IMG/VR virus record: IMGVR_UViG_3300042557_001775
Coordinates: 8,743-72,742 of that record
Direction: 5' to 3' (one strand)
Length of the DNA stretch: 64,000 bases
From: a virus
Numbering within the stretch: position 1 is the stretch's first letter; every line of letters begins with the position of its first letter. This document shows, piece by piece, positions 6,416 through 32,084 of this stretch. Made by a program: the position numbers and the translations under genes. The notes beneath the pieces were generated by a model, which searched no databases, had not been told where the DNA came from, and was given only the letters and a program-made list of their open reading frames with translations.

Positions 6416-7102
6416 TTATCCTTCTTGGGACGCTGGCGTTTCTGGCTGCTGTTGCGAGCTACCAGAAGTATTGAGCCAGCACCAAGAGGGAAAGCGGTAA
6501 CCTTCGCTGGCCTTCTCGGCCACGTCTTGGGGCAGCCACACCTTTGCCTTGAGGTTGCAGCCGCACACGCCGCAGTTGGCAAGGCTGGCGTCCCGCACTG
6601 TTTGGCGCGCTCCGATGATTGAGAAGATCGTCGAGGCCAGATTGGTGCAGACGAAGCATCCACTCATCCCCACGTTCAGGGGACAGGACGCGCAGGTGAT
6701 TGCTCGTCGATTGGCGGTCTCTTCGTCTACCAATCCTTTCTCTCCCAGAGCGGCGCGGACCGCCCCCAGAAAGCGCATGACGTCGTCGATGTTGAATTCC
6801 TTTTTTAACCCGACATCGCTGAGCAATTCACTTGCCTCAGAGTCGCGAGCTGCGAGTTCCTCTTCGGACAGTAGCGGCTGGCATCGTCCCAGATCTTGCT
6901 TGGCGCAGGTGAAGTTCTCGATGTCCTGGCGCGGGTTGCCGGCGGGCAAATTGTTCGCCGCCCGGTGATCACTCACCTGCCCCACGACGAGGTCGAGGAT
7001 GTTGTTCTGGAACCGGCACTCGGTCTCCGGCTGGATGTATTGCCACCCCCCTCTGGGAAGAAGCGATGCGTCGTTCCATGCGTAGTTGGTCGCGGCGTTC
7101 AT
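6416..7102 (-). CDS. Cys-rich (Zn-binding) phage protein
   Basis: CASCP, CFVC, CGVCGCNLKAKV and CW motifs; coupled to the giant gene. Confidence 0.75.
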   Translation of the reverse strand: MNAATNYAWNDASLLPRGGWQYIQPETECRFQNNILDLVVGQVSDHRAANNLPAGNPRQDIENFTCAKQDLGRCQPLLSEEELAARDSEASELLSDVGLKKEFNIDDVMRFLGAVRAALGEKGLVDEETANRRAITCASCPLNVGMSGCFVCTNLASTIFSIIGARQTVRDASLANCGVCGCNLKAKVWLPQDVAEKASEGYRFPSWCWLNTSGSSQQQPETPASQEG

Positions 7103-13100: not shown

Positions 13101-16100
13101 CCACGCTTCCGCCCGGTGTATTTTCTTCTTCAGGCGCGTCGTCAGTGAGTTCGGTCACGTTCGCGACGTTTCCGACTTCCAGCTCTTCTTTTTGCGGCGC
13201 GATTAGGGTTTCCGGCACAAAGCGTTCGTCGAGGGAAACAGTCGAAGGGGCTTCCTTCCGCATCCTCCGGATCGACTTGGTGGCCGCGTTAACGGCGGCT
13301 TGGGCTACTTTGAACGGGGGAGCCTTGCTGCTCGTGATCCGGGAGACCTTGATAAGGTCGTCCACAAAACGATCAACTTCGGGAGAGCTGTCCGCGCTAA
13401 CCACAGTCTTTTTGATCGCGTCATAATCTTTTTTCCCGAGACGTTCCTCCGTTCCGGCTTTGGCAACTTGGCGCCGCTTTCCTTTTGGAGAAATTACTTT
13501 TTCAAGGCTGTCGAGCGTTTCGTTGAAAACCTTTACGGCGTAGGTCTTGTCGGGGTTGTCTCGAAAACGGGCGGCAATCTTATCACGCAGGACAGCAAGA
13601 TCGTTAAAGTCAGGCGCGTTTAGTCTTACTCCCAGATCGAGAGCGGCTTTTCGGACTTTGAGTTCAAGGTCTTCTGTAGGTTTGGGTTTTTTGACTGCGC
13701 GGGCAGCCGCCAAGGCCGCCGCAAAGCGACGAGCAATTTCGACCTGCGTCGCTACTGGAAGAGTGGACGTCCGACCAGAGGCCGCCGCAACGAATTGCTC
13801 CATGGTAGACGTCGCAGCCTTTTTCAGAGCCAGGGTGCGGAGGTCATCGGATTCGACATTGGTGAGCGGACTGCCACCTCCGACTGTAATGCCCGTTGTT
13901 CGTCCCAGAAATGGTTCGAGGCCTTCGAGGAGCTGACGGTAAAGGATGCTGAACGCTTCGGGCAGCGCGGCCATTCGTCGATTAAGCTGCTGCGCTTCGC
14001 GAAGATCTACCGCGCTGCTCGACAAACGAGTTTTCTCGGCCTCAAATCCACGCGCTGGGTCTTGCTGGTAAATCTTGGTGAAGCTTCCAACGCCACTAAG
14101 CTTTTTGAAGCTCAGGGGCCTGTACGCAGACGACTCCCGGTTCGCTTCAAGCCGCTTCTTGTCGTAAGCGTTGGGGAGCATCTCAAGGCGAGCGGACAGA
14201 TCGACCACGGCTTTCTCGGCGGCCCGCAAGGCGTTCTGTTCGTTCGGTGCTTCGACGAGTCCGAGACGCTGCTCCCGGAGCGTGTTGAGCCGTCCTTCGA
14301 TGGTCGCTCGTTCTTCTGCGAGTTTTCCGGCAGACTGATTGACGCGCTTTGTCCGCCCAGCGATCGCTCTTTTGATACGCTCAGCGTCGCTCCTAATCTG
14401 GGTTAGCTCGTCAGTTCTTGATTTTCGCTCTGCTTTGAGTGATGCGAGCCGTGTTTCTGCTTCGCGCAATTGAGCTTCGTAGTTAAGGCCTCCGAGCCCT
14501 TCGCGAACGAGTTGAGACGCGGCGAAGCGGCCTGTCGGCTGTTTTTTGACGGCTTCGCGCAGCTCGCGAATTTCCTTTTCGGCGTTGGTAATCGCGTTAG
14601 ACGAAAGTTCACCGAAGAGTTTTCCGCCTTTGCCTTCGGGCGCGTTCAGTTCTTGCCGCCGCGCTGCAAGGGCCGTCAAACGTTCGTTAAGTGTTTCTAG
14701 GGTGCTTTCTCCGTCGATGCGCGTCTCAAGCGCGGATAATTGCAGGGCTCTCGACTGGACATTCTTACGGGCTTCGGCCGCCCGACTGCTAACGGCGGCC
14801 TGCTCCTGCCGTAGTTCGGCTTCACGATTCGGTGTCGCGTTTTGCAACGCGGCTTCTATCTGTTCGAGCTGCGCCTTTGCATCAGCAAGGGTTTGCCGAT
14901 CTTTGTCTTGGGCCTTCCGAAGCGCGTTGAGCTGGCTGGTTAAGCCTCGCGTATTTCCAGCTTTTTCGGGAGCGCGTGCCGCCGATCCGATTTCAGCCAA
15001 CGCCATTTCGGCATCTCTAATCTCGGCGTCCAGACGATCACGCTCCGCGAGGGCGGCGTTGTTACCCCGCAGTAAGGCGTCAAAAGTTTTACGCGCTTTA
15101 TCGCGGTTTTGGATCGCCCCCGTGAGCGCAGTTTGAGTTTGTTGGATTTCTGCGTCTTCTTCGGCGTCGAGGCGGGCAAGCGCTTCTCGGTCTTGCTCTC
15201 CAGTCGTCCGTTGCTGGTCTCGGCCGGCTTTATTTTTCGGCGGAGATACGTTGGTGAGGGTGAAACTAAGCGGATTCTGCGCGAGAACAGGCGTCCCTTC
15301 TGGGACGAAGCGGCCAGTTTCGTCACGCACACCAGCTCCAGTTTTGACCGGTGCGTCATACGAGCCTTGGCTGACTTCGACGGGTGAGGATTTCCCGTCA
15401 ACGCCGCGCCAAGTGACGGACACCACTGTAGGAGCAATTCTTCCGCGAAACAGCCGGCGCTCGATTTTGACGTCCGGATCGCCTTGCAGCAGAGATACCA
15501 ATTCTGGGGTTGCGGGCACCACGTCACCAGCGTTCAGATGCCGTGCGATGTCGGTTATGGCGCGGCGCTTCGCCACGTTTCGGTTGTTAGTTGCGAGATT
15601 AAACTGCGTGAGAGCTTCGTTGTAAGCGCCGAGCTGCGCTGAATTAGCTTCGTCTTCCCTAGCGCGGACAACTTCGTCGGTGCGTTGCCGGGCGATGGTT
15701 GCGGCGTCGCGGAGCTTTTGGTCTCTCCGTTCTTTAGTCTCGGGCACCGCTTCCAATTCACCGGCTTCGTTGGTGAAGAAGCCTCCGGCAAACACTTTGG
15801 CTTGTTCCTCCTCAAAGAGTCTTTCGTAAATCGCGGTGCGTTCTTCGTTCGTCAGGGATTGCCGCTGCGGTTTTGTGGGGCGAACCGGAGCATTACCTTT
15901 CGGCGTCTGGATAACTGGCGTTAAACGAGCGACAATCGGGCGGCCATTATTCCATGCGGGGCCGGCCGGCTCGGAAGACAGATCGCTCGCTGGCGCGGGT
16001 TGAGGCCCGAATGGAGTTCGCATCTCGGCTAGGAGCGACGTCAGTTCGAGAGCCCGGGCGGACAAGGCTTCTCGCTGCGCTTGACCCGCTTTGCCGATGC

Positions 16101-18735
16101 CCAACTGGATCTTTGGCGTTGCGGCGAATACTCCGCGATCACTGTCTGCGAGCTTCTGCCGGACTTCGTTTAGCTCTTTTGTGTATTGCTCGCGCAGAGC
16201 TTTTCTTTCCGGAGTCTCATCTACTGCGGCCTGCTGCGGGTCCCGGGCGGCCCCTACGCCTGAAGCTTTGCTCGGCGCAGCGTCGCCCGAAACGTAATCT
16301 ATTTTGTAGTTTCGGGGCTCGTCTCTTGTGCCGTCGGAAATGGAAACTGTGGTGGGGAGTCGAACGATTGAGTTCTTCAGCGCGGCGAGCTTTTGTTTTG
16401 CTTCGACGAGCGCGGTGGAAGCGGGGTCGAGTGTTTGCGAAAGTTCAGCAACCTCTTGCTCCGCTGCCGCGATTTCTGCGGCGTTGCCACTGGCTCCAGA
16501 CGGCACGAAAGCATCTCCGTCTTGAGTTCCGGCGATCCCGAGCACCTCATTCAATTCTTCGGGAGTCTTCGCCGCGTTGATCGCCGCATTAAATTCGTCT
16601 TCTTGGGTGCGAAGATCTTCGAGAGGCCGGTTCGCTATGAGGTCGAACTGACTCGGCTTAAGCTCAAACCGATTGTTAGTGACGTCGTCTTGAAAAATGG
16701 CATTGCCGCTTTTGCGAAGGCCCACAAATCGAGCATTCCGAGTTCCTCCTCGGCCATCAGCGATGCTTACTTCGGCGCCCGAGTTCAAAGTTCCTACTCG
16801 ATCGGTGAGGACGCTGCCTTCCAACGCTTTGCGATTTTCGGCTTCTTGAGCTTCGCGTGCGCCCCGGGAGTTCGCCAGCTCACTGACGAACGTGGCCGCC
16901 CCCATGGCTTGGCGAGCGGCGGTCGTCGGCGCACGACTCAACCGCTCACGAAGCGCGGCAACTGCCGTCGCTTTTTGTTCAGCTTCTTTGGCGCTTAAGG
17001 TTTGATCGGTAAGCTCCTTTTCAAGGCGGGCGATCTCGGCTTCTGCCTCCTGCTTCTTGAGCGTCGCGTCGGCCTCGGAAAAATCAAACTGCCCCGAACC
17101 AAGAAGCACGAAGCCTGAAGCCCCTGGCATGTATGCGGGATCGGCCTCATGCGTTTCCTTGATGGGTTTTTGCCGAGGGGCGAGTTCCGGCTCGGCTTCT
17201 CCTTCGACCCCCGCTTCGCGCTGCGATTTGAAATACTCCAGCTCCTTGGCTAGGGCGGCACCTTCTATGGTTCCCAGATCCAAGGGCGCTACGCGGACGC
17301 CGCCGAGATCAACCGCTGCGCCGACACGCCCGTCATACTCCGTCTCTGGATCGATGGCCGCCCATCCGGCGCTCTCGTTGAAGCGGAACTTGAGGCCGTC
17401 CCTTTCGATCGGCTCCGACCACGCTCCCAGAATGTCCTGCGGGGTTTCGGGGGCGGCAGGAGTTTCTTGGTCTTGGTCGTCCCCACCGATTCCGTCTATC
17501 GCTTGCTTGGTGCGAGGTGCGAGGTTTTCCAACACGCCGCCACCGCCGCCAAGCATACCGCCGATTGTGGCGCCAGCCGCTGCCGCGATCATACGCTCCC
17601 TCCCCGCCCCAGGAGCGTTGAGCCGCTCTTCGATAGTCTGGTTCGGGTCGGCCATGCCAACGGCGGCTTGTTCGAGGCCGGTCTGGAGATACTCGGTCGC
17701 GCCCTCCAGCGGCGCACCGATGGCCGCCCCTCTGGCCGCTCCAGCGGCAACGCGCCCGGGGAACTTCAAATTCAGCGGCTTGCTTTCGACGCCAAACATC
17801 TTGTTGACGCCCGGAATCTTCGAAGCCACGAATCCCTCAAACAAAGTATCCAGCGCGGCGCCGGGGACCGATGTGGCGAGAGCCGCCGTGACTGCTTCGC
17901 TGCCACCCTCCCCGGTCTCATCCCGGATCTGGCCGTAAGTCCCGCCGGAAATCTGTCCCAAATTGGCGAGGTACGCGCCGGTCATGGCGCCGTAGCGGGT
18001 TCCGCTGGAAACGGCCCCCTGAACTCCCCGCGCAGCATCATCGACAGTCCCCGCAAGTCCACGGGCGGTTCCTTCGGCGGCCTTGGCCCCCACCGATCGG
18101 GTCAGGAGGCCCCGGGTAATCTCTTCGGCGACTTTGCGCTCGGCTTCGTCGGCCACTTCTCCGGCGGCCCGACGCTTGGCGATCTGGTTGATGACCATCC
18201 GCTTGGCGAGCGATTTACCGACCGCGCCGCCGACGCCGCCTCCCAGAATCGAGGTCAAAAGCTGGGGGAGCTGTTCGCCGAGGAGGCCGACGGCATAGCG
18301 GCCGGCATCGCCCAAGTCTTCGATATCTTCAAAAGGATCCTGCACCGAAGCGGCCTGCGTGGCCGCCTCTTCCATGGCCCGACGATAATTGTCGTAGCCC
18401 CAATCGGCGGCCCGCTCGATACCAAGTCCGTCGGCGGCCAGCCCCAAGAAGCCGTAAGCCAGTCCTTCGAGCTGGTCCCCGCCCCGGCTCAATCCGACAG
18501 AGAACTCTTCTCCCAGAGTACGGGGGACGGCTTCGAATCTGGTTCCGACGTTTAACCCTCGGGAGCTGTCGGCCAACGAAGGCAAAAGACTCTTGGCCGA
18601 CTCCTGCTCCTGCTCGGGCGCAGATTCTTGGGGTATCGCCAGCTCGGCAGGTTCATCTAAAGACACCCGCCGCTGGTTTAACCCTTGAACCTTTTCTTCG
18701 TCTTCTTGCTCCAGAAGATAGTCGTACCAAGCCAT
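7099..18735 (-). CDS. giant internal virion/ejection polyvalent protein (3878 aa) with zincin HExxH domain
   Basis: 11.6-kb ORF at the end of the virion module; Gly/Ala-rich N-terminus, coiled coils, TLLHELSH..EEFVVE, PK/PE-rich linker, helical C-terminus with hydrophobic segments. Confidence 0.85.
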   Translation of the reverse strand: MAWYDYLLEQEDEEKVQGLNQRRVSLDEPAELAIPQESAPEQEQESAKSLLPSLADSSRGLNVGTRFEAVPRTLGEEFSVGLSRGGDQLEGLAYGFLGLAADGLGIERAADWGYDNYRRAMEEAATQAASVQDPFEDIEDLGDAGRYAVGLLGEQLPQLLTSILGGGVGGAVGKSLAKRMVINQIAKRRAAGEVADEAERKVAEEITRGLLTRSVGAKAAEGTARGLAGTVDDAARGVQGAVSSGTRYGAMTGAYLANLGQISGGTYGQIRDETGEGGSEAVTAALATSVPGAALDTLFEGFVASKIPGVNKMFGVESKPLNLKFPGRVAAGAARGAAIGAPLEGATEYLQTGLEQAAVGMADPNQTIEERLNAPGAGRERMIAAAAGATIGGMLGGGGGVLENLAPRTKQAIDGIGGDDQDQETPAAPETPQDILGAWSEPIERDGLKFRFNESAGWAAIDPETEYDGRVGAAVDLGGVRVAPLDLGTIEGAALAKELEYFKSQREAGVEGEAEPELAPRQKPIKETHEADPAYMPGASGFVLLGSGQFDFSEADATLKKQEAEAEIARLEKELTDQTLSAKEAEQKATAVAALRERLSRAPTTAARQAMGAATFVSELANSRGAREAQEAENRKALEGSVLTDRVGTLNSGAEVSIADGRGGTRNARFVGLRKSGNAIFQDDVTNNRFELKPSQFDLIANRPLEDLRTQEDEFNAAINAAKTPEELNEVLGIAGTQDGDAFVPSGASGNAAEIAAAEQEVAELSQTLDPASTALVEAKQKLAALKNSIVRLPTTVSISDGTRDEPRNYKIDYVSGDAAPSKASGVGAARDPQQAAVDETPERKALREQYTKELNEVRQKLADSDRGVFAATPKIQLGIGKAGQAQREALSARALELTSLLAEMRTPFGPQPAPASDLSSEPAGPAWNNGRPIVARLTPVIQTPKGNAPVRPTKPQRQSLTNEERTAIYERLFEEEQAKVFAGGFFTNEAGELEAVPETKERRDQKLRDAATIARQRTDEVVRAREDEANSAQLGAYNEALTQFNLATNNRNVAKRRAITDIARHLNAGDVVPATPELVSLLQGDPDVKIERRLFRGRIAPTVVSVTWRGVDGKSSPVEVSQGSYDAPVKTGAGVRDETGRFVPEGTPVLAQNPLSFTLTNVSPPKNKAGRDQQRTTGEQDREALARLDAEEDAEIQQTQTALTGAIQNRDKARKTFDALLRGNNAALAERDRLDAEIRDAEMALAEIGSAARAPEKAGNTRGLTSQLNALRKAQDKDRQTLADAKAQLEQIEAALQNATPNREAELRQEQAAVSSRAAEARKNVQSRALQLSALETRIDGESTLETLNERLTALAARRQELNAPEGKGGKLFGELSSNAITNAEKEIRELREAVKKQPTGRFAASQLVREGLGGLNYEAQLREAETRLASLKAERKSRTDELTQIRSDAERIKRAIAGRTKRVNQSAGKLAEERATIEGRLNTLREQRLGLVEAPNEQNALRAAEKAVVDLSARLEMLPNAYDKKRLEANRESSAYRPLSFKKLSGVGSFTKIYQQDPARGFEAEKTRLSSSAVDLREAQQLNRRMAALPEAFSILYRQLLEGLEPFLGRTTGITVGGGSPLTNVESDDLRTLALKKAATSTMEQFVAAASGRTSTLPVATQVEIARRFAAALAAARAVKKPKPTEDLELKVRKAALDLGVRLNAPDFNDLAVLRDKIAARFRDNPDKTYAVKVFNETLDSLEKVISPKGKRRQVAKAGTEERLGKKDYDAIKKTVVSADSSPEVDRFVDDLIKVSRITSSKAPPFKVAQAAVNAATKSIRRMRKEAPSTVSLDERFVPETLIAPQKEELEVGNVANVTELTDDAPEEENTPGGSVGPELLRLVGEDKKLMSKLSTEDQKLFLGTFGLEWDPSQDRYWYKDPGKIARLEELVTATGRVDFSNLDPRLQEIIRYIQGDVSYNTLYGIPENNLIGKKAADWKPSATAERLLQQKENREILEWAKRGGNAGRISGRGLSAAGDGAVAGGAPRVSQSLGGPDPDPAGERGLRSPSGPDADRSGSVSSGAAQPIRGSRPRTRLLNRTVRTVAPRAARAYVASWSGLTSKDLEGYTDEQINRIVTAIETEGRATESTLAAGGNVIGQTSQPFADLLLTKSATELLAGMAATQAARRRGSNAAKLKIKRENIRKLIQSGAFKDIETFLKTVANDQSQSLKARSIAAAFVKLGPRLGWNDNVSLQIAGFGRNFNSQPLTEEEIDRRVKVKDGKITLTLGSKKKEITLDADPDKADAQIDAARSEVEDDIIKSNAVTWSGRAAESDGAYSIYLNTNAIHDNREGGAIDTLLHELSHVVVNSKLNGFVELNSAERAAIQRLEGFRRQSIIAAGRSRGLDVPAKPTDAEVKIISDQLQEIAASESNQALISLTSLEEFVVEVTHNPEVAKQLATLGFGKGTFKGDFVAALKDVWNSIVALITGVQVDSSSPLAEGFSDSWRLNFSSVEGDAAPELIRSRMIDEMEAAVAQAQYIEEQLEAQDLAGTSEDRNRLAAEWPAVRETRRQQAQQAQAEARREIRLPSGRVLRYRQGFAPTSGVAGTNVLPRGTEVILLEQAAEAEAAEAGRSVDEIQQDISKKESDLRALEGILEGLDELHAFKTQRRRNTNKPEDPRVREAAQKLGRNTFTPMADIEAELNLLYSELAAAKARQPAEPAIEPKPEPPTPVEPKPEPDPEPPKEPPKKKKKAPAPDPDPEAAPEVSDTDITDADTTGESPRLKVVPEPKGTPAPKPTRKTDPEIDKAVQAMSRSEFVAWAQKTGRAEPVVIDGETKGDDFRPPSGGQMDSGVYWDLFNEKNQAAVEKRMQKRAPAPEVTIKRDPDSMTEQELNEIPNIRYSDSLGGKFERVFRDEVSKTPTGGTYVKGKFISAVDRLMDARGTDKFQSSRAGIKAEASRADANIRLLVRAVRDRNIDPRKITTALGNLDNPFTEAQMAEMMRVRLTDPEAAAELKDRYRRENRMKFRERQTAALKSLPRDVRVLVTQMRDHINVLQRRLKSEGLVSGDLEIAIDETLGIYLNRSYAIFDNPKWADRVRKNLKVMAGARGFLKKQLIEKAKERILNTATKTGTTISEAEAQRQATRSVAAADVETALEAALSVKDPTLEALSGRVMGQKNLSIFMSRGTIAPEIQALWGVYDNPETAYGKTILKMSTLIYNHRFLRELRELGLSEGWFSAQPEMRQDEDTGEFVVRGANFEEILRTADRAAAETAFRDAFADWEAPTGFVKISDETNARLSPLAGVWGNRDIVEALYKMYPQSDAENAARLFAKATGLSMAMATVGSAAAQTRNYLAGYLKLLSTGALMPGSFSGKAIGLAHQTAIQEAFKNYGSGPKAYEKARQEIEKLIRLRVFGESVTANMIDDLVQDYRELGGARVQAGDAVTRKITQPFRKLWDFAQGTYAMSDNIMRAIVFYTERENYRRAYPKMAEAELDEKAAEISREIYWTYSEAPQWVQELKRGPGLVVAPFITFTTEVVRTAINTLRLAASEIKSGNPELRSLGYRRIGGFGLAMTVPSVAAGGIAAMAGMTPEDEEDLREFLPDWQKNNQLLLFGRTGNTISYADISFFDGHEYFKKPFVAMMRAFGRAESMPEAIADGGVAMVGELMKPFVGEQIVFGAVTSVLRNVDAGGRRIYNPQDSGTNIAQAIGAHLAGAFVPGTAKTIYRGGLGVAGVVSDSGQQFSAAQEIGAIVTGTRIRQVDLDQALGFGASEFLRNKRDATSLFNRVLLSRGTQPPGAVAGSFDLTDQAQYRLTQEARRRYMAARRLGLPEPAAISRLRATGIGKDDLEDIASGIYRPFQPSKESLKNAAPERAREAEQAAGQAQERDL

Positions 18736-21741: not shown

Positions 21742-23241
21742 TTAAATATAACTGAATGATTTATTTCCAACCCCATACTGACCGGCTGGAGTGTAATAAT
21801 ACTGACCGACACCCCACCGCGACATCTCAGAAGGGTCTTTTCCCCACGCTTTAGCCGCGCCGGTAGCCGATCCATAAAAACCTGAATTACGGTCTAAGCC
21901 TCCCGTCACCATCGAGCTTAACGAGCTTCCGACACCTAGGATATCGTTGAAGCTAAAGCGACTTTGGGGTGCCGAGAAGCTCCTGCTGTAGTCTCCGCCG
22001 CCTCCACTGCCGCCAAGCGATCCCCCAAGGCTCGCCCCTAATGAAGCACCTGCGGCAGTGCCTAACCCAGGGGCCACGAAAGTGCCTACTAAACCCCCTG
22101 CGACAGCTCCGCCGAGTGACGCGATAGAAGATAGCCCCGCTGCGTATTGCCGGTTCTTGTCCGCTTCTACTTGAAGTTGATTTTGCCAAGACGTGTTGTT
22201 GATGCTCTGTCTCCAGTCACCCCACGTTGTAGCAGCCGCGACAGACTGTCTTGACGCGGAGTCGTACGCAGAGGTCTGCATGGCGCCGCTTTTTAGTATC
22301 GCGTCTAGCCCGCCCAAGTATCGTGTCTTGCCCATGTCGCTTTGCGACACAAGAACATCCCGTGCGACGCCTTGCCGGGCCCCTAAAATTGTATTCAAGC
22401 CAGTCTGTTGATTCCGAACGTATGCTTGTTGCGCTCCAAATATATTTTCGTTGTTTCGCTGGTTTATTGTTAGCGCGTCTTTACTGCTTATCCCCAGGTA
22501 GTCACTGGCCTGCGCTGCCGTGGTTTGCAATCCGGATACTTGGGTGTCGTAGATAAGTTTCGCCCAATTCTGGGCGCTTTGGTCTGCCTGCATCGCAAGA
22601 TCCAGCGAAGTGAGGCCTAAGTTACGAGCGGCCAACGCCGATCCCGCTTGGCTTCCAGCCCCAAGTCCTCCCTGAAGAGCCCCGTACGCGCTTTGCCGTT
22701 GCACGGAAGCCATCACGTCGGCGGGCAAACGCCCTTGTAACATCTCAAGGTTGTTCCGGCTAATCTGCTCTTGCTGAGCTAACTGATACGGGTTTGCCCG
22801 GTCGATCATGCTTTGCCGAGTACGGAACGCAGACTCCGTCAACTTGTCGGCAAAACTAATAAAATTGTCTGCATTCTTTAGGTTGAAATCGACTGCCTCT
22901 TGGCCTGAGCGCGTAACAAGGCCGTCTGAACGAGTTTTGTATTCGTCGATATAGCCTTTCTCTTCTGCGTAGAGTGCCGGCAGCGCGTCTCGAAAAGACG
23001 CGATGGCATCTTGCATCGATGTAGAATATTCGGTGTTGGCGGACTCGATAAGAGAGCGGTAGTCACCAGCTCTTTCTTGCTCTAGCGTAACAACCTCCTT
23101 GGCCGCAGCGATACTTTTATCGACGTACGCTTTGATCGCGGCCATCGATTTCCCGTACGCATTGTCCGCAAGCTGAATTCCTTTTTGCTCCCGTTCCCGG
23201 TTCACCTTCCCCGGATCGCCTTTGCTGCCGCCCATGCTCAT
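21742..23241 (-). CDS. internal virion/pilot-like protein
   Basis: GGAGG RBS, MSMGGSKG start; Gly/Ala/Gln-rich with glycine-zipper hydrophobic C-terminal segment. Confidence 0.7.
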   Translation of the reverse strand: MSMGGSKGDPGKVNREREQKGIQLADNAYGKSMAAIKAYVDKSIAAAKEVVTLEQERAGDYRSLIESANTEYSTSMQDAIASFRDALPALYAEEKGYIDEYKTRSDGLVTRSGQEAVDFNLKNADNFISFADKLTESAFRTRQSMIDRANPYQLAQQEQISRNNLEMLQGRLPADVMASVQRQSAYGALQGGLGAGSQAGSALAARNLGLTSLDLAMQADQSAQNWAKLIYDTQVSGLQTTAAQASDYLGISSKDALTINQRNNENIFGAQQAYVRNQQTGLNTILGARQGVARDVLVSQSDMGKTRYLGGLDAILKSGAMQTSAYDSASRQSVAAATTWGDWRQSINNTSWQNQLQVEADKNRQYAAGLSSIASLGGAVAGGLVGTFVAPGLGTAAGASLGASLGGSLGGSGGGGDYSRSFSAPQSRFSFNDILGVGSSLSSMVTGGLDRNSGFYGSATGAAKAWGKDPSEMSRWGVGQYYYTPAGQYGVGNKSFSYI

Positions 23242-23711
23242 GCGGCCTCCTTCCCGATCCACTCAATTGGATCGTCATTCGCGGTGAAGAATTTCCACAT
23301 TTCAAGGCTCGACTCCCGGGCGGCTTCGGGGCCTCGAAGGATCATCACGATCATCGGAGCCATCAGGAGATGGACGTCCCGGAGCGTCAACGCATAGGCG
23401 CGCCCTCTTGACCCTTCGCGCTCCAGTTCCACCGAATCCCGCCAAGCGATGATGGCTTGGAAAATTAGCGGCATCAGCTTCGCTTTGTGCGCGTTGAAAA
23501 ACTCGTTGGTCGGCAGCTCGACCAAAGCACCCCAGAAAGTCAGGTCGATTTCTTCGCGGGGCGGCAACTCGTCCCCGTCCACGAGGGCATCCCAGAGTTC
23601 GGAAATGCCGCCGAGCGTCGTGATAAAGTCGAGTGCGCTTCGGTCTCCGCCAAACCATTCAAGCAGTTTGGCGTCTCGGGCGTCTCTCCATTCAGGTGAA
23701 TCGTAGATCAT
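23238..23711 (-). CDS. conserved helical phage protein (WDxLVDGD motif)
   Basis: ELWDALVDGD...LP.NEFF motif; located between adaptor and internal proteins. Confidence 0.65.
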   Translation of the reverse strand: MIYDSPEWRDARDAKLLEWFGGDRSALDFITTLGGISELWDALVDGDELPPREEIDLTFWGALVELPTNEFFNAHKAKLMPLIFQAIIAWRDSVELEREGSRGRAYALTLRDVHLLMAPMIVMILRGPEAARESSLEMWKFFTANDDPIEWIGKEAA

Positions 23712-23712
23712 G

Positions 23713-23733
23713 GGTTAGCAGGTTATTATATCA
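23713..23733 (-). promoter_or_regulatory. extended -10-like TGATATAAT fused to AACC-N4-AACC element
   Basis: Minus strand reads TGATATAATAACCTGCTAACCCATG. Confidence 0.45.
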
Positions 23734-26700
23734 CCGCATGAAGCGGACTGCACGTCGGATGGGCGGCTGCCCCGTGAAGTTCTGCTGTGCGAGCTGGGTG
23801 GCGAGCATTTGGGTGGCCTTCTCCATATGGGCCGCGATCTGGTCTCCTCCCAGAAGAAAACCCTTGGCGGCCTCGAAGACGGCGGCAAAGTTCCGCAGAT
23901 ACATCTTCTCGTTGTCTGAAGCATGAGGCAAGAAGCGCCGTTTCCCGAGGATACGGACCACGGGGACAGTGTCAGGCAGAGTGATGAAGTATTTCCGCTT
24001 GAGCTTGTTGCCGTCAGCGGGATCGGGGGCCTCGCCGCGATCGACTGCGCCTTGCATCCAAGCGTAGTCGTCCCCGCGATAGCCAGGACCGCCGCGCAGC
24101 CATTCGGAGTACCTATCATGGACGGCACGGGGATTGTTATCGAAGGACATGAAAAGGATCGTCTCAATCTCCTGGGGCAGGAAAAACTCGCCCGTCGCGG
24201 TGACGTTGAGCGTGTAAGTGTCCACGCTGCCAACCCATTTGCCGGTCAGCATGAGCTGCTCCTCGGCGGTGTTGATGAACCGCTTCACGGCGGCATCGGA
24301 AAGGCGATACGCCTCGGGGAGTTCCAGCCCCGCTCTGCCCCAGTGGTAACCGAACGTGTCCGGGGCAGAGGCCGACAACTGCTGCCGCTTGGCGCGGCGG
24401 GTTTCTTCGATGTCGGCCACAATGTCGCGTTCGACCAGAGCAAGAGCCGATGCCTTTATGGCTCCGGCTGCGTCGGCATACTTGGAATCATCGTCACGAC
24501 CGTTGACGACAACTACCGATCCAGACGGGGAGTTGTTCTTGCGCGTCATGGCGGCCGGGACCAAGTAGCTCTCGATCATCAGCTTTTTCTGCTCGTACGT
24601 CACGGCTGGGCGCGGGCCGCTGTAATCTTCGCGCCGTTGGAGGAACGCCTGATGGGAACGGATTTCTGTGACGGCTTGGTCGGCCAACGTCTGCATCCTC
24701 GAAGCGGGGATCTGCAATCCTCCGGCGATTTCGTTGTGGAGGCGCCCGATTTCTCCGGTCGCATCGCGCCGGGCTTCTTCGACGCCGCGAACGAGATTCC
24801 TTTCCACGAGGGCAAAGGCTTCTTGCTTAAAGGCCGCAGCGGCGTCGGCTTGCCCCCGGGAGGTGGCAACATAGGATTCGACGAGCTTTTTGCGGATCTC
24901 GTCGTCGAACGTCCCGGGTGCGGTCGCCTTGTAATCTTCGCGGCGGGCCAAGAAGTTAAAGTGCGCGGCGGCCTCGGTGTTGGCGGTTGTCAGGTAAGCG
25001 TCAATCCGCGCCGTTGGGATTTTCACGCCGTCAGGCAACTCATTGTGCAGCCGCCCCGCGAATGTAGCTACAGCGCGACGAGACGCTTCTACCTGAGTCA
25101 TCAGGTCACGCTCGATAAGTTCAAAGGCTTCCTGTTTTAGTTTGGTGGCTACGTCGGGAGCGGCTTGAGCGGTAGCGAGGTAGGACTCGACCAACTTTTT
25201 ACGGACTTCAAAAGAAAAGGTCGCAGGAGCTGTCGCGTTGTAGTCTTCCCGTTTCGCCAGAAAATTGTAGTGCGCGAGGGCTTCCGTTGCCGCCGTACTC
25301 AAGTAAGTCGTAAGTCTCGCTGTCGGGACTTTCACGCCGTCGGGAAGTTCGTTGTGTAAACGGGTTTCGTCCGGAAGTCCGGCAACACTGCGACGGGTAG
25401 CCTCTACCTGAGTCATCAGGTTGCGTTCGATCAGCTCAAACGCCGTCTGCTTCAACTGACTAGCGACGTCGGGCGTCCCTTGGGCAACGGCGATACATGC
25501 TTCAACGAGCTTTTTGCGGATCTCAAACGGAAAAGTCGGCGCGGTCGCGTTGTAATCTTCTCGGCGCGCCAAGAAAGTGAAGTGATCCGTAGCTTCGCTT
25601 ACCGCCTGGGACAAATACGCGGCAAGGCGAGTAGTCGGGTATTTGAGCCCCTCGGGAAGTTCGTTGTGCAGCTTGGCGACGTCTGCGTCATCGGTGTACT
25701 CGCGACGAGCCGTTTCCACTTGCGCCATCAGGTTGCGCTCGATAAGCGAAAACGCCTCGGCTTTAAGGCTCACGCTCAAATCAACGACTTTGTCGTTTCC
25801 TGCCGTTGCGGCGCCGCGCGTCGTGGCATGATACGATTCGATCAGCTTTTTGCGAATTTCATAGGGGAACGGGATAGGCAGAGTGCCGGTGGAGTAGTCC
25901 TCGCGGCGAATCAAAAAGTTCCAATGGGCCGTCGCGTCCAAGACCGCTTGATTCATGTAGTCTACGATGCGCGCAGTCATCACTTTGACGCCATCGGGTA
26001 GTTCGTTGTGCAATCGCCCAATCTCGCCGGGTTGGTCGCGCCGATTAGCTTCAACCCTTGCCATTAGATCGCGCTCGATCAACGAAGCGGCTTCTTGCTT
26101 CAAGGCGGTTGCAACGTCGGCCTGTCCGCCAGCGGTCGCGATATACGCTTCGACTAGTTTCTTTTTGATCTCAAAAGGAAACGACGGAAACGGCGGGTCG
26201 GTTTCTCTGTAGTCTTCGCGGCGCGCGAAGAAAGCCCACTGAGCGGCAGCGTCGGTCCCCGCTTGAGACAAATAGGTTTCAAGCCGACTGGTCTTAAACC
26301 GAGTTCCGCCGGGCAGCTCATTGTGCAAGCGGCCAGCTTCGCCGGGATAACCTTTACGTTCCGCCTCGACCAAAGCCATCACGTTGCGCTGGATCAACTC
26401 GAATGCCTGCGTTTTGATCGCGCCACCGTCGGCTCCATTGTCGGTCATCAACAAAGACAGCGTCAGGAGGCGGATGACTTCTCCCGGTAGCGCGGCTGGA
26501 AATGAAGTGGCGTCGCTGGAGAGCGCGATAAACGTCAGCGGGACACGATCAAATTCCTCCGACCGAGCAATGAAGTTGTGGTGGTCTATCGCCTGTTGGT
26601 ATGCCTGATTAAGGTAAGACCGAATACGGGTCGCGGTAAGCCGATACTTAGAAACGGTCTCAAGCCCAACTCGCCCGACCATGCCGCCGAAAGTGTTTTG

Positions 26701-27099
26701 GCTACTCAGGGCCAAAGTTTGAAACGCGGTCTTACGCTCGCGGTCCACCGTGGTGGTGATTTTGCGCTCGATATACGAGTAAGCTTTTTGCTCCAGAACA
26801 GCCGCCCGCTCTAAGTCGTTGTTCTCTTCGCGCCATAGCGCGAGGATCATGCTCTTGGTCGCGTCCGGCTCGTCGAGAATCAAGAGCCCGGTAAGTGGAT
26901 TGCCGGTCGTGCCACCAGCTTGCCAGACAAGCTCAGTACGCTCTGCCTCTTCCTGCCGAGAGACAAAATTAAAATGATCGATCAGACGACGTTGCGCTTC
27001 GTTTATTCGGCTGTCGATGCGTGCAGAATTGCTCGTGGCTACGCCATTATCGACGTAGGCGGCGAATAACCCGCGTGCTTGGACAAACGAAGTAGCCAT
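23731..27099 (-). CDS. head-tail adaptor (tail tubular A-like) protein with tandem ~103-aa repeats
   Basis: Six clear (R/K)LHNE..REDY..EI(R/K)KKL..LIER repeats, two degenerate N-terminal units, and a complete adaptor-like C-terminal domain (FINTAEEQL...KW.G...LPQEIETIL). Confidence 0.7.
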   Translation of the reverse strand: MATSFVQARGLFAAYVDNGVATSNSARIDSRINEAQRRLIDHFNFVSRQEEAERTELVWQAGGTTGNPLTGLLILDEPDATKSMILALWREENNDLERAAVLEQKAYSYIERKITTTVDRERKTAFQTLALSSQNTFGGMVGRVGLETVSKYRLTATRIRSYLNQAYQQAIDHHNFIARSEEFDRVPLTFIALSSDATSFPAALPGEVIRLLTLSLLMTDNGADGGAIKTQAFELIQRNVMALVEAERKGYPGEAGRLHNELPGGTRFKTSRLETYLSQAGTDAAAQWAFFARREDYRETDPPFPSFPFEIKKKLVEAYIATAGGQADVATALKQEAASLIERDLMARVEANRRDQPGEIGRLHNELPDGVKVMTARIVDYMNQAVLDATAHWNFLIRREDYSTGTLPIPFPYEIRKKLIESYHATTRGAATAGNDKVVDLSVSLKAEAFSLIERNLMAQVETARREYTDDADVAKLHNELPEGLKYPTTRLAAYLSQAVSEATDHFTFLARREDYNATAPTFPFEIRKKLVEACIAVAQGTPDVASQLKQTAFELIERNLMTQVEATRRSVAGLPDETRLHNELPDGVKVPTARLTTYLSTAATEALAHYNFLAKREDYNATAPATFSFEVRKKLVESYLATAQAAPDVATKLKQEAFELIERDLMTQVEASRRAVATFAGRLHNELPDGVKIPTARIDAYLTTANTEAAAHFNFLARREDYKATAPGTFDDEIRKKLVESYVATSRGQADAAAAFKQEAFALVERNLVRGVEEARRDATGEIGRLHNEIAGGLQIPASRMQTLADQAVTEIRSHQAFLQRREDYSGPRPAVTYEQKKLMIESYLVPAAMTRKNNSPSGSVVVVNGRDDDSKYADAAGAIKASALALVERDIVADIEETRRAKRQQLSASAPDTFGYHWGRAGLELPEAYRLSDAAVKRFINTAEEQLMLTGKWVGSVDTYTLNVTATGEFFLPQEIETILFMSFDNNPRAVHDRYSEWLRGGPGYRGDDYAWMQGAVDRGEAPDPADGNKLKRKYFITLPDTVPVVRILGKRRFLPHASDNEKMYLRNFAAVFEAAKGFLLGGDQIAAHMEKATQMLATQLAQQNFTGQPPIRRAVRFMR

Positions 27100-27782
27100 T
27101 AAGCCGGTATTTCTTCAACTGTCACTAAGACATTCCCACTCGCGCCGAAGAGGTCTGGCGTGGTACTAGAGCCCGCGAGATACGCAGTGCCGCTGGTAGT
27201 CCCGACGCGCAGCGAATAAGTAACAGCGGTCGTAGTGTTGGGGGTGTGCAGCCCTTCGACAATAATACTTCTCGACTCGGCGGCGCCGCCAAAACTAGTT
27301 ACCGTAGCGGCGAAGCACGTCGATTCGATGCCAGCCATCAGGCCCGCCGTAATGGACGCGGGGTACGTTGCCCCGCCGATGGAACAGCTCGGCAAAAAAG
27401 CACGAACCAGCATTTTGTTGGCGGTTGTGCGCGGGGTGATGCCCGGCGTGTTTAGCACGTTGGCCCCCGCGTTCCCCGGCAAGGCCGTTGACGAACCCGT
27501 CGCTATCACTCCAGAAGTGGAAAAGTGCGACAAGCTGGCCGTGACAATATTGCTTCCTATCACAGTCTGCCATTTCGCGTCCCAAAACCCGTTGAGGGTT
27601 CCCTTGGAAGTATCTAGCCACAGCGCCGATCCGTCAGTCGGGACGTTGGTGTTTACCCCACTGATAAACACAATCTTTTTGCCTGCTGGCGCGGTCAAAT
27701 AGGACGCAAACGTCTCCAACAAAGTTTGGAGATTGCTCGGATACTTTGAGTTTACGGGCAGAGTTCCGGGTATAAGCGGCAT
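27099..27782 (-). CDS. tail fibre/spike-like protein
   Basis: Thr/Ser/Gly-rich beta protein; P.TT.AVTY..RVG..SG...VTVEEI C-terminal pattern. Confidence 0.6.
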   Translation of the reverse strand: MPLIPGTLPVNSKYPSNLQTLLETFASYLTAPAGKKIVFISGVNTNVPTDGSALWLDTSKGTLNGFWDAKWQTVIGSNIVTASLSHFSTSGVIATGSSTALPGNAGANVLNTPGITPRTTANKMLVRAFLPSCSIGGATYPASITAGLMAGIESTCFAATVTSFGGAAESRSIIVEGLHTPNTTTAVTYSLRVGTTSGTAYLAGSSTTPDLFGASGNVLVTVEEIPA

Positions 27783-29680: not shown

Positions 29681-29952
29681 TAAAGCGATAGTTTGAAATT
29701 CAATGTGTCATCATTTGCCGCAAACGTGCTGAGCAATAAATAACGGTTGCTGTTAATGAGTAAATATACAGCTTCTGTCGGGCGATTGTAGCTCAGATGC
29801 CCGTCGAATGCTTGCGTCCCCAGCAGTTGCTGCGTCGGCAAGATTGCGGTCGCGTACACTGGTGCTGAAAGCCCCCCGCTGAGCGGTCTACAACCTACCC
29901 CGGTAGTAGCCCCTATTTCCAGTGGCGCCGCCGTTATAGCGCGGCAGCTCAT
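29680..29952 (-). CDS. small structural-module protein
   Basis: Translationally coupled on both sides. Confidence 0.55.
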   Translation of the reverse strand: MSCRAITAAPLEIGATTGVGCRPLSGGLSAPVYATAILPTQQLLGTQAFDGHLSYNRPTEAVYLLINSNRYLLLSTFAANDDTLNFKLSL

Positions 29953-32084
29953 AAAATTGAGCCTCCTCCAACGGATTCGGTCTGCTTAGTAGCGTGTAAT
30001 AGCAGCCTGCCTAACCTCGCGCGGCCGCGCCATGAAATGCGTAGCGCAAATTCGTGCCCTAAGTTTGCGGGTAATTCAGTCGCTGCGTTGTCAGCTTCCG
30101 GCGGGGTAGGCAGCCGAAATTGAGAAATATACCCCCGGGCGTAATCAGGTACGTTATTGGAAACGCCGTCTGGAACAAACTGCGTTACAAAGCACTGTGT
30201 AATAGTGTGCCAATGCACCCACTGCGGGCTATCATCGGCGTGCCAATAAATTTTGCACTCGAACGTTTCGTCGGGCCCGCCGCCCAAATCGTCGAACCAA
30301 ACGTCGCACCTCAGTAGCTTTTTGACATTATACTCTTCCTTGAAATCAAAGCTTTTCGTGTTCACGAGCGCATTGACGGGCCGAACAACGCCTGCGCCAT
30401 CAATGTCATGCTCTCGGTCTAAAGACACTTCCCACAATTCATGGAAGTTGGTGTGAAAGCATATGGCAAACATGCGACGAACACCGCCGACCTCGGCGGC
30501 AAACACTTGCAAGGGAGAGATTCCAGTCCACACGCCATCAAACGAAGCTGCTGATTTTTCTCGGTTCCCTGCCGTGTTTCGAAAGTCCAATACCGCGATT
30601 CCGTCGTAGACAATGTTAACCGGCGCGTCCGCGAGCAAAGCGGCGCTTGCATCTTGCGCTGCTTTTGTACTGCCCGACGCAGTAGGAACGACCGCGCGAG
30701 GCCAACAAGTCATCAACAGACGGTCATCAAAGTAGGCAAAACTTACGCGCTCCAGAAGATACGATGTGTCGTATTTTAAGATCGAGTCGATTTCTGAGGA
30801 CATGGGCGTTTGGCCGTAGCCCTCAAAATCAGCGCGCGCGCTCCGGTACGAGCGAATTCCGTTTCCGTCCAAGCTCCGAAAAAACAGATCCCCGTTTACT
30901 GCTTGCACACTCTCGGCCGCCGACCCTACGTTCAAAAATAACACGCGCTGAAAACCTTTGGTTTGCTTCCATTGCATTCGTTCGAGCGAAACGGTAAAGC
31001 TCGCGGCGCCTCGCTCGCAAAACGCGATAAGATCGCCTTGTCCAGTCGCGTCATCTTGGACTGGAACAAACGCCATGGTCTGTACTTTTCCCATTTCGCC
31101 GGGCAACGAAAACGACCCACCTTCGGCTAAAAACGTATGCTCGCTAAAATTCAGCAAATCTTGATCGCTACCTGAATTGAATCTCGCGACGAAACCGCCA
31201 GCCCCGGCGGTTGCAACCGCAGCGGGTATCACAAACGAGTACTCGTCGTTTCTTTGAACGACAACGTATGTTCCGTTGATGTTCGGGGTGCTGCTGTGTC
31301 CGGTGATTGTGACTGAATCGCCCGCCGAAAAACCGTGAGGTGCTTCTGTCGTAACAACGCACGGAAAGTCTACGCTTGTGCTTTTAATTGCTACGCTGGA
31401 CACGCTGCCTCCGTAAATGAGATCCCCCGCCATTATTTCACTGCCGTCGTTGACGGCCACAAAAAGTCGCCCTTGTCCGTACGCCATTTGCTTTCCGGAC
31501 GGAACGCTAGGGGAACCGTAATAGCTCGCCGGTTGACAGCCATAGCCGTCATAGATGATCGGCTCGTTTGCGCCGTCTTGGATGACGACAAATTTCTCGG
31601 CTTGTACTAAATAAACCGGAACGGTGTTCAGTATCGGAACTGACTGGTTGACCCAAAAACACGAACCCGCTGTTAGATCAATCGCTAGGACGCGCCCATC
31701 GATGACGAGGATAAGCTGCGCCGGTCGCCCCTCGCGGGGGTCATTATAAATTAAACCCCCTTGATAATACCGCCCTGCCCGGACGTACGCTTCAAACCGG
31801 CTTGCGGAAGTAGAAGTGTCTCCCGTTAATCTTGGTCCCGAAAGGCCGTCTTGGACCCACTCGTCAAATCCCGGCTGCCCACTAGCGACTGACGTTGGCG
31901 ATCGCCAATAAGAAGCTCGGATTTGAGAAAAACCCGGCCGCGTTCTAGGACCGCCGGCGCCCCGAAAAGTGCAATTTTCGGCGTAGGACGCCGCGCCGTC
32001 AGCAATCTGGGACGGATCGCGGCTTCCATCCATGCCGACCAAGCCACGGAAGCCATCAACCAGTCTTTCCTGGTCGATAATCAT
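29949..32084 (-). CDS. tail nozzle/stabilisation protein (tail tubular B, P22 gp10-like)
   Basis: 711 aa beta-rich protein after the capsid gene; GRLFVA, GDLFFRS, PMSSEID motifs; E1-FCCH-like insert VVTTEAPHGFSAGDSVTITG...NGTYVV. Confidence 0.7.
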   Translation of the reverse strand: MIIDQERLVDGFRGLVGMDGSRDPSQIADGAASYAENCTFRGAGGPRTRPGFSQIRASYWRSPTSVASGQPGFDEWVQDGLSGPRLTGDTSTSASRFEAYVRAGRYYQGGLIYNDPREGRPAQLILVIDGRVLAIDLTAGSCFWVNQSVPILNTVPVYLVQAEKFVVIQDGANEPIIYDGYGCQPASYYGSPSVPSGKQMAYGQGRLFVAVNDGSEIMAGDLIYGGSVSSVAIKSTSVDFPCVVTTEAPHGFSAGDSVTITGHSSTPNINGTYVVVQRNDEYSFVIPAAVATAGAGGFVARFNSGSDQDLLNFSEHTFLAEGGSFSLPGEMGKVQTMAFVPVQDDATGQGDLIAFCERGAASFTVSLERMQWKQTKGFQRVLFLNVGSAAESVQAVNGDLFFRSLDGNGIRSYRSARADFEGYGQTPMSSEIDSILKYDTSYLLERVSFAYFDDRLLMTCWPRAVVPTASGSTKAAQDASAALLADAPVNIVYDGIAVLDFRNTAGNREKSAASFDGVWTGISPLQVFAAEVGGVRRMFAICFHTNFHELWEVSLDREHDIDGAGVVRPVNALVNTKSFDFKEEYNVKKLLRCDVWFDDLGGGPDETFECKIYWHADDSPQWVHWHTITQCFVTQFVPDGVSNNVPDYARGYISQFRLPTPPEADNAATELPANLGHEFALRISWRGRARLGRLLLHATKQTESVGGGSIL

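Follow-up and report, generated by a model that had tools for sequence, protein, structure and literature searches.

A candidate single-chain poly-adaptor with a labile number of adaptor-like modules in uncultured phages

Podophages are expected to carry a single adaptor ring between head and tail, with crAss001 as the notable exception (five rings from four genes). The T7 paper describes an up-down four-helix bundle as common to all adaptors. In T7 gp11, the last helix of this bundle lines the channel and ends at the portal clip, and helices 1 and 2 are joined by a downward-facing loop that touches the nozzle platform. The adaptor of SU10, gp11, combines a helix bundle with a fibre dock and an embracing loop. 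In crAss001, five dodecameric rings made of four paralogous proteins, each with three conserved helices and a beta-sandwich, form a 23-nm stack, the barrel that lies between portal and muzzle, and the last ring binds the muzzle through its N-terminal residues 15-26. The crAss001 paper refers to other podoviruses as known with one ring only and ties the extended barrel to reaching through the capsule. Here we analyse a phage gene whose 1122-residue product (P0001) appears to carry nine adaptor-like modules in one chain. The gene occupies positions 23731-27099 on the minus strand of a 64,000-nucleotide stretch (the window) that comprises bases 8743-72742 of the 72,742-bp IMG/VR virus record IMGVR_UViG_3300042557_001775, which has direct terminal repeats and is rated complete. 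An earlier note, made from the sequence alone, had read the gene as a concatenated head-tail adaptor, and the background it gave on T7 and crAss adaptors agrees with the papers.

We propose, with modest confidence, that the gene encodes a virion head-to-tail adaptor that was extended at its N-terminus by serial duplication of its core and that assembles as a barrel of stacked tiers. The homology between the modules, the predicted fold of the C-terminal domain and the behaviour of the repeats among relatives are presented below, followed by the arguments for and against this arrangement.

Module architecture of the 1122-residue chain

The open reading frame (ORF) is open throughout, and the gene is real: a near-length search retrieved 124 relatives at E<=1e-3, and synteny is kept in 32 IMG/VR loci. 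A tblastn search of the INPHARED phage collection (50,697 phage records) returned nothing similar to the 1122-residue protein.

Six units begin with the motif LHNE, at nucleotides 26328, 26013, 25671, 25359, 25050 and 24741 (residue numbers in Table 1), all six within 2 nt of the positions in the earlier note. They form direct DNA repeats of 60-80% identity spaced 309-342 nt, which Tandem Repeats Finder does not call as an array because the units are too diverged. At the protein level, pairwise identity among the six is 37-67%. A hidden Markov model (HMM) built from these six units alone also detects two modules ahead of them, N1 (residues 12-125) and N2 (residues 138-251), at E<1e-3. Profile-profile comparison with hhalign relates N1 to the unit at 98.8% (E 4.5e-17), N2 to the unit at 99.96% (E 5e-39) and N1 to N2 at 99.2%. 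The two degenerate units that had been placed in front of the LHNE units were thus both found by the six-unit HMM and by the profile comparison. Eight units and a distinct C-terminal domain (the C-domain) make nine modules, which bears out the initial estimate of about nine adaptor-like modules in one chain.

The full-length AlphaFold2 (AF2) model has a mean predicted local distance difference test (pLDDT) score of 84.6 and a predicted template modelling (pTM) score of 0.37. The repeat modules mostly reach pLDDT 85-94, and four short segments are of low confidence (the loops at residues 851-869 and 992-1009, the rest in the C-terminal tail). All eight units share one predicted helix pattern, with a short helix of 8-16 residues followed by helices of ~25, ~15 and ~28 residues. 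The unit alignment contains three segments free of proline and glycine, and its insertion hot spots are confined to two loops. In U6, the unit that adjoins the C-domain, a low-confidence loop insertion spans residues 851-869, and the last helix (residues 868-909, 42 residues) enters the C-domain. The near-invariant residues of N1 are A13, P14, V16, D17, N18, G19 and V20, and its nearly invariant VDNGV motif sits in the loop joining the first two helices. In every module, the loop between helices 1 and 2 holds a motif, which reads LHNELPxG in the units and GLELPE in the C-domain; in N1 it is VDNGV.

The C-domain (residues 905-1122) is predicted to contain two helices (916-926 and 935-952), a beta-sandwich of ~100 residues, two further helices (1071-1083 and 1087-1108) and a low-confidence basic tail with an invariant arginine. 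The same order of elements is described for the adaptors of T7 (gp11), SU10 and PhiXacm4-11 (the last in a preprint). An AF2 model of residues 782-1122 (pLDDT 84.1, pTM 0.74) was compared with the PDB using Foldseek, which placed SU10 7z47_A at the top (E 2.8e-6) and gave eight matches at E<=1e-3. The next matches come from cyanophage A4, Pa223, GP4, Carin-1, KHP30, VP1, N4 and DEV, and every one of the matches listed at ranks 1-21 is a phage tail, neck or adaptor entry. The crAss001 tail barrel protein 7qoj_F is matched at E 3.3e-3 with probability 1.00. VIA-align, run against 48,161 representative chains, returned A4 at Z 11.5 (187 residues, root-mean-square deviation (rmsd) 4.1) and SU10 7z47_A at Z 11.4 (198 residues, rmsd 4.8; model residues 122-341 against chain residues 3-232). 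GP4 (Z 11.0), Moo19 (10.5) and KHP30 (10.3) come next, then matches at 9.7, 9.6 and 9.3; the crAss001 rings 7qoj_E (Z 7.5, 164 residues) and 7qog_C (7.1), P22 gp4 (5.9) and the KP32 tail tubular protein A (5.1) score lower. In BFVD, 70 matches were obtained at E<=1e-3, the named ones being head to tail adaptor, tail tubular protein A and podophage structural proteins. In the ESM Atlas, 25 of the 30 nearest clusters to residues 905-1122 fall in the PF24175 SU10_adaptor set (score 0.96).

At the level of predicted fold, the C-domain is thus very probably a podophage head-to-tail adaptor, and the Foldseek, VIA and BFVD matches of the model agree with the adaptor-like terminal domain recognised in the earlier note. 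Judged from the model, the beta-sandwich inserted between helices 2 and 3 is the counterpart of the T7/SU10-type adaptors' fibre dock or upper domain. The basic tail ends in R1122, which is invariant in 48 sequences. It is placed like the portal-embracing tail of other adaptors and may have the role given to that tail in the T7 and SU10 papers.

Sequence comparisons place the C-domain at a distance from described adaptors. Pfam, PHROG and PDB-sequence searches with the protein (phmmer) and the profile (hmmsearch) gave no relevant match, and PF24175 and PF17212 gave none either with the whole protein (E<=1) or with the C-domain (E<=10). Using hhalign, a narrow C-domain profile scored 0.17% (E 0.36) against the SU10 gp11 family (62 collected relatives). 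A broadened profile (86 sequences, remote relatives included) scored 75.7% (E 2.4e-5), aligning columns 6-137 with 7-130 (121 columns) so that the N-termini start together. PF24175 matched 2 of 67 remote relatives (best E 2.6e-4), and an HMM built from the 62 SU10-like sequences detected no relative of P0001 (best E 0.21). The alignment to the single T7 gp11 sequence (E 0.054) is powerless because an SU10-versus-T7 control is equally weak (E 0.053), and hhalign to single crAss001 ring sequences gave nothing (E>=0.09). Among the crAss ring models, PF24228 and PF25710 (six-frame searches included) and PF25702 (Pfam-A scans only) had no match. Six-frame genome searches with PF24175, PF17212, PF25710, PF24228 and PF11650 revealed no other adaptor or ring gene, and Pfam and PHROG scans of the neighbouring genes found no adaptor family; the phage is highly divergent, so this is no proof that a second adaptor gene is absent.

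Some automatic labels were rejected. PAX (PF00292) matches P0001 at residues 613-651 (window ~25147-25263) with 32.7 bits, above the curated cut-off of 22, and is a false positive on a repeat helix. DUF3615, Phasin_2 and a transcriptional-regulator PHROG (E 0.12) are spurious matches of the whole protein. PAX and DUF3615 labels are precomputed for many relatives, and automated annotation will propagate the error.

Profile comparisons also connect the C-domain to the units that precede it. Compared at family level, the opening 82 residues of the C-domain are similar to N2 (95.2%, E 2.5e-8). The broadened profile's N-terminal half matches N2 at 96.8% (E 2.1e-10), N1 at 94.9% (E 4.6e-8) and the unit at 90.3% (E 1.5e-6). 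The C-terminal half (domain residues 140-218) matches N1 at 79.5% (E 1.5e-5) and the unit and N2 weakly, with the register unchanged (E 0.014 and 0.018). By this measure, the similarity between the C-domain halves and the units is far beyond chance. Both halves match the units, which therefore appear to consist of the helices that flank the beta-rich stretch, without that stretch itself. The in-register matches of the two halves support the earlier proposal that each unit is the helical part of the terminal domain lacking the beta-rich insertion.

The fold of U6, the sole unit searched in this way (residues 1-120 of the smaller model), gave VIA matches that may be due to chance, as Z below ~13 can be for helical bundles. 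These were phage 812 8q01_b and T4 gp13/14 9lu4_D (both Z 6.7), the Mu neck subunit 5ydn_A (Z 6.6; 89 residues, rmsd 4.2), P74-26 9oab_Ea (Z 6.5; 91 residues, rmsd 3.2), phiCD508 (6.4), YqbG 1xn8 (6.1) and the JBD30 connector (6.0), with a few unrelated helical proteins interspersed. Taken alone, the matches of U6 to neck adaptors are suggestive, and they agree with the internal homology to the C-domain. On the profile comparisons, the eight units are best described as dock-less derivatives of the adaptor's own helical core.

Repeat number among relatives and in the wider superfamily

The lengths of the relatives are quantised and the number of LHN[ED] motifs tracks them: proteins with two motifs have ~675 residues, those with three ~780, four ~884, five ~988, six ~1092 and seven ~1196. 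Middle units thus number 0-7 among relatives, in steps of ~104 residues. Three or four are most frequent in the 112 complete proteins (37 and 39 proteins, respectively), which otherwise have two (9), five (10), six (8) or seven (9). A search for shorter proteins returned mostly fragments, plus P0145, a complete N1-N2-C protein of 479 residues with no middle unit. A second zero-unit form (P0217) and a one-unit form (P0215) came from the representative search described below. Counting repeats across relatives, a check suggested in the earlier note, therefore yielded a clean 0-7 series.

In a tree of 91 proteins computed from the non-repeat parts, unit number changes at least 30 times (45-50 in the five printed shuffles), and sisters differ by up to four units. 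When the units were typed against a seven-unit reference, the one adjoining the C-domain was of the same type in nearly all proteins and the penultimate one mostly so, with an interior made of two or three types in varying numbers. Mean pairwise identity is highest for the C-domain (0.79), followed by N1 (0.74), the last unit (0.72), N2 (0.63) and the first middle unit (0.58). The pattern is one of conserved ends and an expandable middle.

The relatives are unnamed or called 'hypothetical protein', bar a few evidently wrong automatic names, and a cluster look-up of eight of them gave 'hypothetical protein' at most. Three longer relatives, P0103 (1951 residues), P0117 (1301) and P0119 (1585), combine adaptor repeats with a precomputed lamin-tail domain (PF00932), which suggests that some poly-adaptors bear extra surface-exposed domains.

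A profile search of 1.84 billion representatives produced 288 matches at E<=1e-3, and 141 newly listed proteins were scanned with the module HMMs and classified by a rough script. Complete-looking sequences account for 111 of the 141, and 103 of these have at least one recognised module: one in 47 proteins, two in 25, three in 18, four in 7, five in 4, and six and seven in one each. About half of the complete-looking representatives hence carry 2-7 adaptor-like modules. Dock-bearing modules occur twice in 43 proteins, three times in one and four times in another (P0275, 901 residues), and P0289 (1277 residues) contains about four and a half modules of a 300-residue type. Others, such as P0221 (1140 residues), P0233 and P0247, have a full adaptor-like module at both ends and helical modules between. 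If each dock takes fibres, tails built from such proteins would bear several fibre tiers. The BFVD matches likewise include long unnamed viral proteins of 583-1308 residues. Together with the module counts, these proteins indicate that adaptor concatenation is general and not specific to one genome.

Proposed arrangement of the modules in the virion

In the arrangement that we favour, twelve copies of P0001 would bind the portal clip through the C-domain and its tail. Leading away from the portal, the modules would add more tiers of twelve-fold symmetry, running C, U6 ... U1, N2, N1, to give a barrel that resembles the crAss001 stack of five rings but has its tiers fused into one chain, and N1 at the far end would take the nozzle. 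The top of one module's last helix would join the bottom of the next module, a contact that could be made because helix 1 is cut to 8-11 residues. The argument also takes in the hallmark motif of the modules, which lies in the loop that faces the nozzle in T7 gp11. Each middle unit would add ~4-4.6 nm, as estimated from a 28-residue helix and from the 23 nm spanned by five rings in crAss001. If the modules stack in this manner, repeat number would set tail length without a tape measure. Topological reasoning, the crAss001 precedent and a raw correlation with fibre-module length point to a multi-tier neck or tail of this kind; on the geometry itself, twelve chains stacked as a barrel, we are evenly divided.

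The correlation concerns the genes upstream of the poly-adaptor. Across 20 distinct loci, and uncorrected for phylogeny, the number of middle units correlates with the total ORF length between the 711-like and ~140-aa genes (Spearman 0.76, p 1e-4); the coefficient is 0.55 for the longest fibre ORF and 0.10 for the 711-like protein. Only three phylogenetically independent pairs are available, of which two to three are concordant and none opposite (p>=0.25). The correlation is thus a lead rather than a result, and this smallness of the independent sample is one of several points that weigh against a stacked barrel.

Other points concern how the modules are placed relative to one another. With a pTM of 0.37, the full-length model does not predict their relative placement, and their collinearity is deduced from secondary structure and the text of papers only. 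As deduced from the same papers, helix 1 of canonical adaptors starts on the upper, outer side of the bundle, so that an N-terminal extension could equally leave the ring outward. A peripheral appendage could absorb the frequent changes in unit number, with sisters up to four units apart, more easily than a conduit for DNA. The net charge of the units (0 to -3) makes them only slightly acidic, and the T7 paper describes a markedly electronegative adaptor channel. Three further points are that the Z of 6-6.7 reached by the unit falls in the range attained by chance among helical bundles, that Pfam adaptor and ring models do not match the protein by sequence, and that the neighbouring genes are assigned as nozzle and portal by position only. 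In Foldseek searches with the full-length model, no solved chain meaningfully spanned several modules, and non-phage matches had probability <=0.16 and rmsd >39 A. A four-copy oligomer prediction for U4-U5 (residues 575-780, with alignment) gave 'no answer', its score of 0.00 lying below the mark of 0.42, and counts neither way.

Several of these points would be accommodated by the main alternative, possible but less likely in our view, in which the eight helical modules of each chain form a rod and twelve such rods project outward or downward from the ring as whiskers, struts or a tail cage. The N1 tip would then bind fibres, the capsid or the host surface, and repeat number would set reach rather than tail length. 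The upper, outer start of helix 1 and the unfixed arrangement between modules both suit this alternative, fibres and appendages typically show highly labile unit numbers, a spacer arm would account just as well for a variable middle between conserved ends, and the correlation with fibre-module length is also what might be seen for arms that cooperate with fibres. Rods would not be expected, however, from modules that each appear to keep the fold of a ring-forming adaptor or neck protein and not that of a coiled coil or fibre. The motif most conserved in each module also sits in the loop that, in T7, is turned towards the next tail component, crAss001 provides a case in which such modules stack as rings, and many relatives carry a full adaptor-like module with a dock at the N-terminus as well, suggesting a second ring.

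We find it improbable that the repeat region lies outside the mature tail, either as an extension for assembly or scaffolding that is later removed by cleavage or as part of an internal or ejected protein with an adaptor-like domain. The gene does sit directly upstream of a block of large proteins that ends in a 3878-aa virion protein. The repeats are nevertheless kept as whole modules of confidently predicted fold with conserved ends, the placement of the adaptor domain at the C-terminus, its tail free, is as in a portal-bound protein, and no cleavage motif was noticed, although no dedicated search was made. Least probable of all is a side-by-side arrangement, in which fewer than twelve chains would supply covalent dimers, trimers or tetramers of modules to one twelve-position ring: linker-less relatives with two (C-C) and four modules (P0275) exist, 2, 3, 4 and 6 divide 12, and neighbouring SU10 adaptor subunits are described in two alternating conformations, yet there are nine modules here, 4-9 in close relatives and three and four in the zero- and one-unit forms, the observed counts of 5, 7, 8 and 9 do not divide 12, and a single module carries both dock and portal-embracing tail.

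Gene neighbourhood and comparison with known systems

The structural module lies on the minus strand of the window. It includes a large terminase, a 780-aa portal candidate, fibre-like proteins, an endolysin and a 430-aa capsid-like gene, and further along the 711-aa conserved protein, a 631-aa fibre-like protein, the 227-aa ORF and then the 1122-aa ORF. ORFs of 157, 506, 643 and 342 aa follow, and then the 3878-aa protein. Helicase/exonuclease, DNA polymerase, methyltransferase and primase genes are found on the plus strand. In the 32 IMG/VR loci the order is kept as capsid-like gene, 711-like gene, fibre ORFs, ~140-aa ORF, poly-adaptor, small ORF, 506-like protein, further ORFs and giant protein. 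The coordinates of the modules and of selected neighbours are collected in Table 1.

Table 1. Features of the poly-adaptor gene and of its neighbours, in window coordinates.
Feature	Position	Strand	Description
Poly-adaptor gene (P0001)	23731..27099	-	1122 aa; stop codon 23731-23733; 124 relatives; full-length AF2 model
Module N1, aa 1-125	26725..27099	-	Degenerate, highly conserved; predicted helices 5-12, 25-49, 78-92, 96-130
Module N2, aa 126-251	26347..26724	-	Degenerate; sequence intermediate between unit and C-domain
Unit U1, aa 252-356	26032..26346	-	LHNE at aa 258
Unit U2, aa 357-470	25690..26031	-	LHNE at aa 363; loop insertion between third and fourth helix
Unit U3, aa 471-574	25378..25689	-	LHNE at aa 477
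Unit U4, aa 575-677	25069..25377	-	LHNE at aa 581; predicted helices 576-584, 593-617, 630-644, 648-675
Unit U5, aa 678-780	24760..25068	-	LHNE at aa 684
Unit U6, aa 781-904	24388..24759	-	LHNE at aa 787; last unit (type 7), position conserved, adjoins adaptor domain
C-terminal domain, aa 905-1122	23734..24387	-	Very probable complete podophage-type head-to-tail adaptor (Atlas, hhalign, AF2, Foldseek, VIA, BFVD)
Beta-sandwich insertion, ~aa 959-1054	23938..24225	-	Between helices 2 and 3 of adaptor domain; AF2 strands
Basic C-terminal tail, aa 1109-1122	23734..23775	-	Low confidence, pLDDT<50; ends in R1122
227-aa ORF	27099..27782	-	Directly upstream of adaptor gene; always adjacent in relatives
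711-aa protein	29949..32084	-	Between capsid-like and fibre genes; 668-956 aa in relatives
157-aa helical protein	23238..23711	-	Directly downstream of adaptor gene
506-aa protein	21742..23262	-	505-801 aa in relatives
3878-aa ORF	7099..18735	-	Closes structural block
Large terminase	47548..49323		phrog_2, E 6.5e-20

Identity over the first ~140 residues of the 227-aa ORF product is 64-72% among distant relatives, against 96% in the near-identical locus L003, and a second copy lies nearby in L009, L022 and L032. This product may be a fibre or dock partner. The 711-like protein shows 46-52% identity among relatives (L003 again excepted). No Pfam or PHROG family matches the 711-aa protein, the Atlas gives only unnamed viral clusters for it, and BLASTP comparison with the SU10 nozzle and portal found nothing for either the 711-aa or the 780-aa neighbour; by position only, the 711-aa protein is a nozzle candidate.

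Downstream of the adaptor gene, the 157-aa protein matches phrog_21390 (E 7e-19, function unknown), and relatives have an unrelated-looking ORF of 113-171 aa in its place. The 506-aa protein has a glycine/serine-rich C-terminal part. Its length in relatives correlates weakly with unit number (Spearman 0.54, n=18, phylogeny-uncorrected), and the protein could serve to fill the channel as a plug or needle. The 3878-aa ORF has no Pfam match, and residues 3265-3693 match phrog_22602 'virion structural protein' (E 3e-30). A homologue occupies the same position in relatives, with 31-58% identity over the parts covered by the loci, and we regard the product as a probable giant protein of the internal or ejected kind.

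Adaptors and multi-ring barrels are already known. New, to our knowledge, are the single chain of up to nine modules, its labile count and the large family to which it belongs; no published description of a concatenated single-chain adaptor was found in the literature listings searched. In our tentative view, twelve poly-adaptor chains would make up a long tail tube in this uncultured podophage lineage, without a tail-tube protein or tape measure, in steps of ~4-5 nm per 104-aa module that plausibly track the thickness of the host envelope, and the principle would be general across the superfamily. Were this so, it would be a further general way of building a phage tail. On the present findings, concatenation of adaptor modules within one gene also occurs, is common in uncultured phages and is evolutionarily very labile in copy number. 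Stacked modules would make a self-measuring tail wall with its length written in the repeat number, and would offer a simple engineering handle on phage tail length. Even as side arms, the poly-adaptors would represent a new and abundant class of virion proteins, un-annotated and spuriously labelled PAX or DUF3615 by pipelines.

The tape measure proteins of long-tailed phages lie inside a tube made of another protein. P0001 would resemble them, by functional analogy only, in that length is encoded by the length of one protein and changes by internal duplication. There is no homology between the two, and the repeat protein would itself be the wall. The helical neck adaptors (Mu 5ydn, YqbG 1xn8, P74-26, JBD30, phage 812 and T4 gp13/14) are dock-less helical ring formers, as the units would be, and match U6 at Z 6.0-6.7 over 83-109 residues, a range that chance can reach for helical bundles. 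They differ in being single modules and in having no sequence relation to the units.

The T7 gp11 and SU10 gp11 adaptors (PF17212 Tube and PF24175 SU10_adaptor) share with the C-terminal 218 residues of P0001 the same order of domains and, by prediction, the same fold, and their genes likewise lie in the tail module. Neither Pfam model matches at the sequence level, and these adaptors are single modules of ~196-250 aa, whereas P0001 has eight extra dock-less modules (~900 aa) in front.

The crAss001 rings R1-R5 (gp43, gp40, gp35 and gp34; PF24228, PF25702 and PF25710) provide a parallel in which paralogous adaptor-like modules are reused along one tail, and the solved rings match the C-domain in fold (helices and beta-sandwich). 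In crAss001 the rings are separate gene products with a sandwich in each. In P0001 the modules are fused, the eight units lack the sandwich and the last module alone retains it. There is no sequence match between the two systems, and the number of middle units in the poly-adaptors varies from 0 to 7 among close relatives. Stacking is established for the crAss001 rings and is what we infer for the 1122-aa protein, which would thus build from one gene a barrel of the kind that crAss001 assembles from four.

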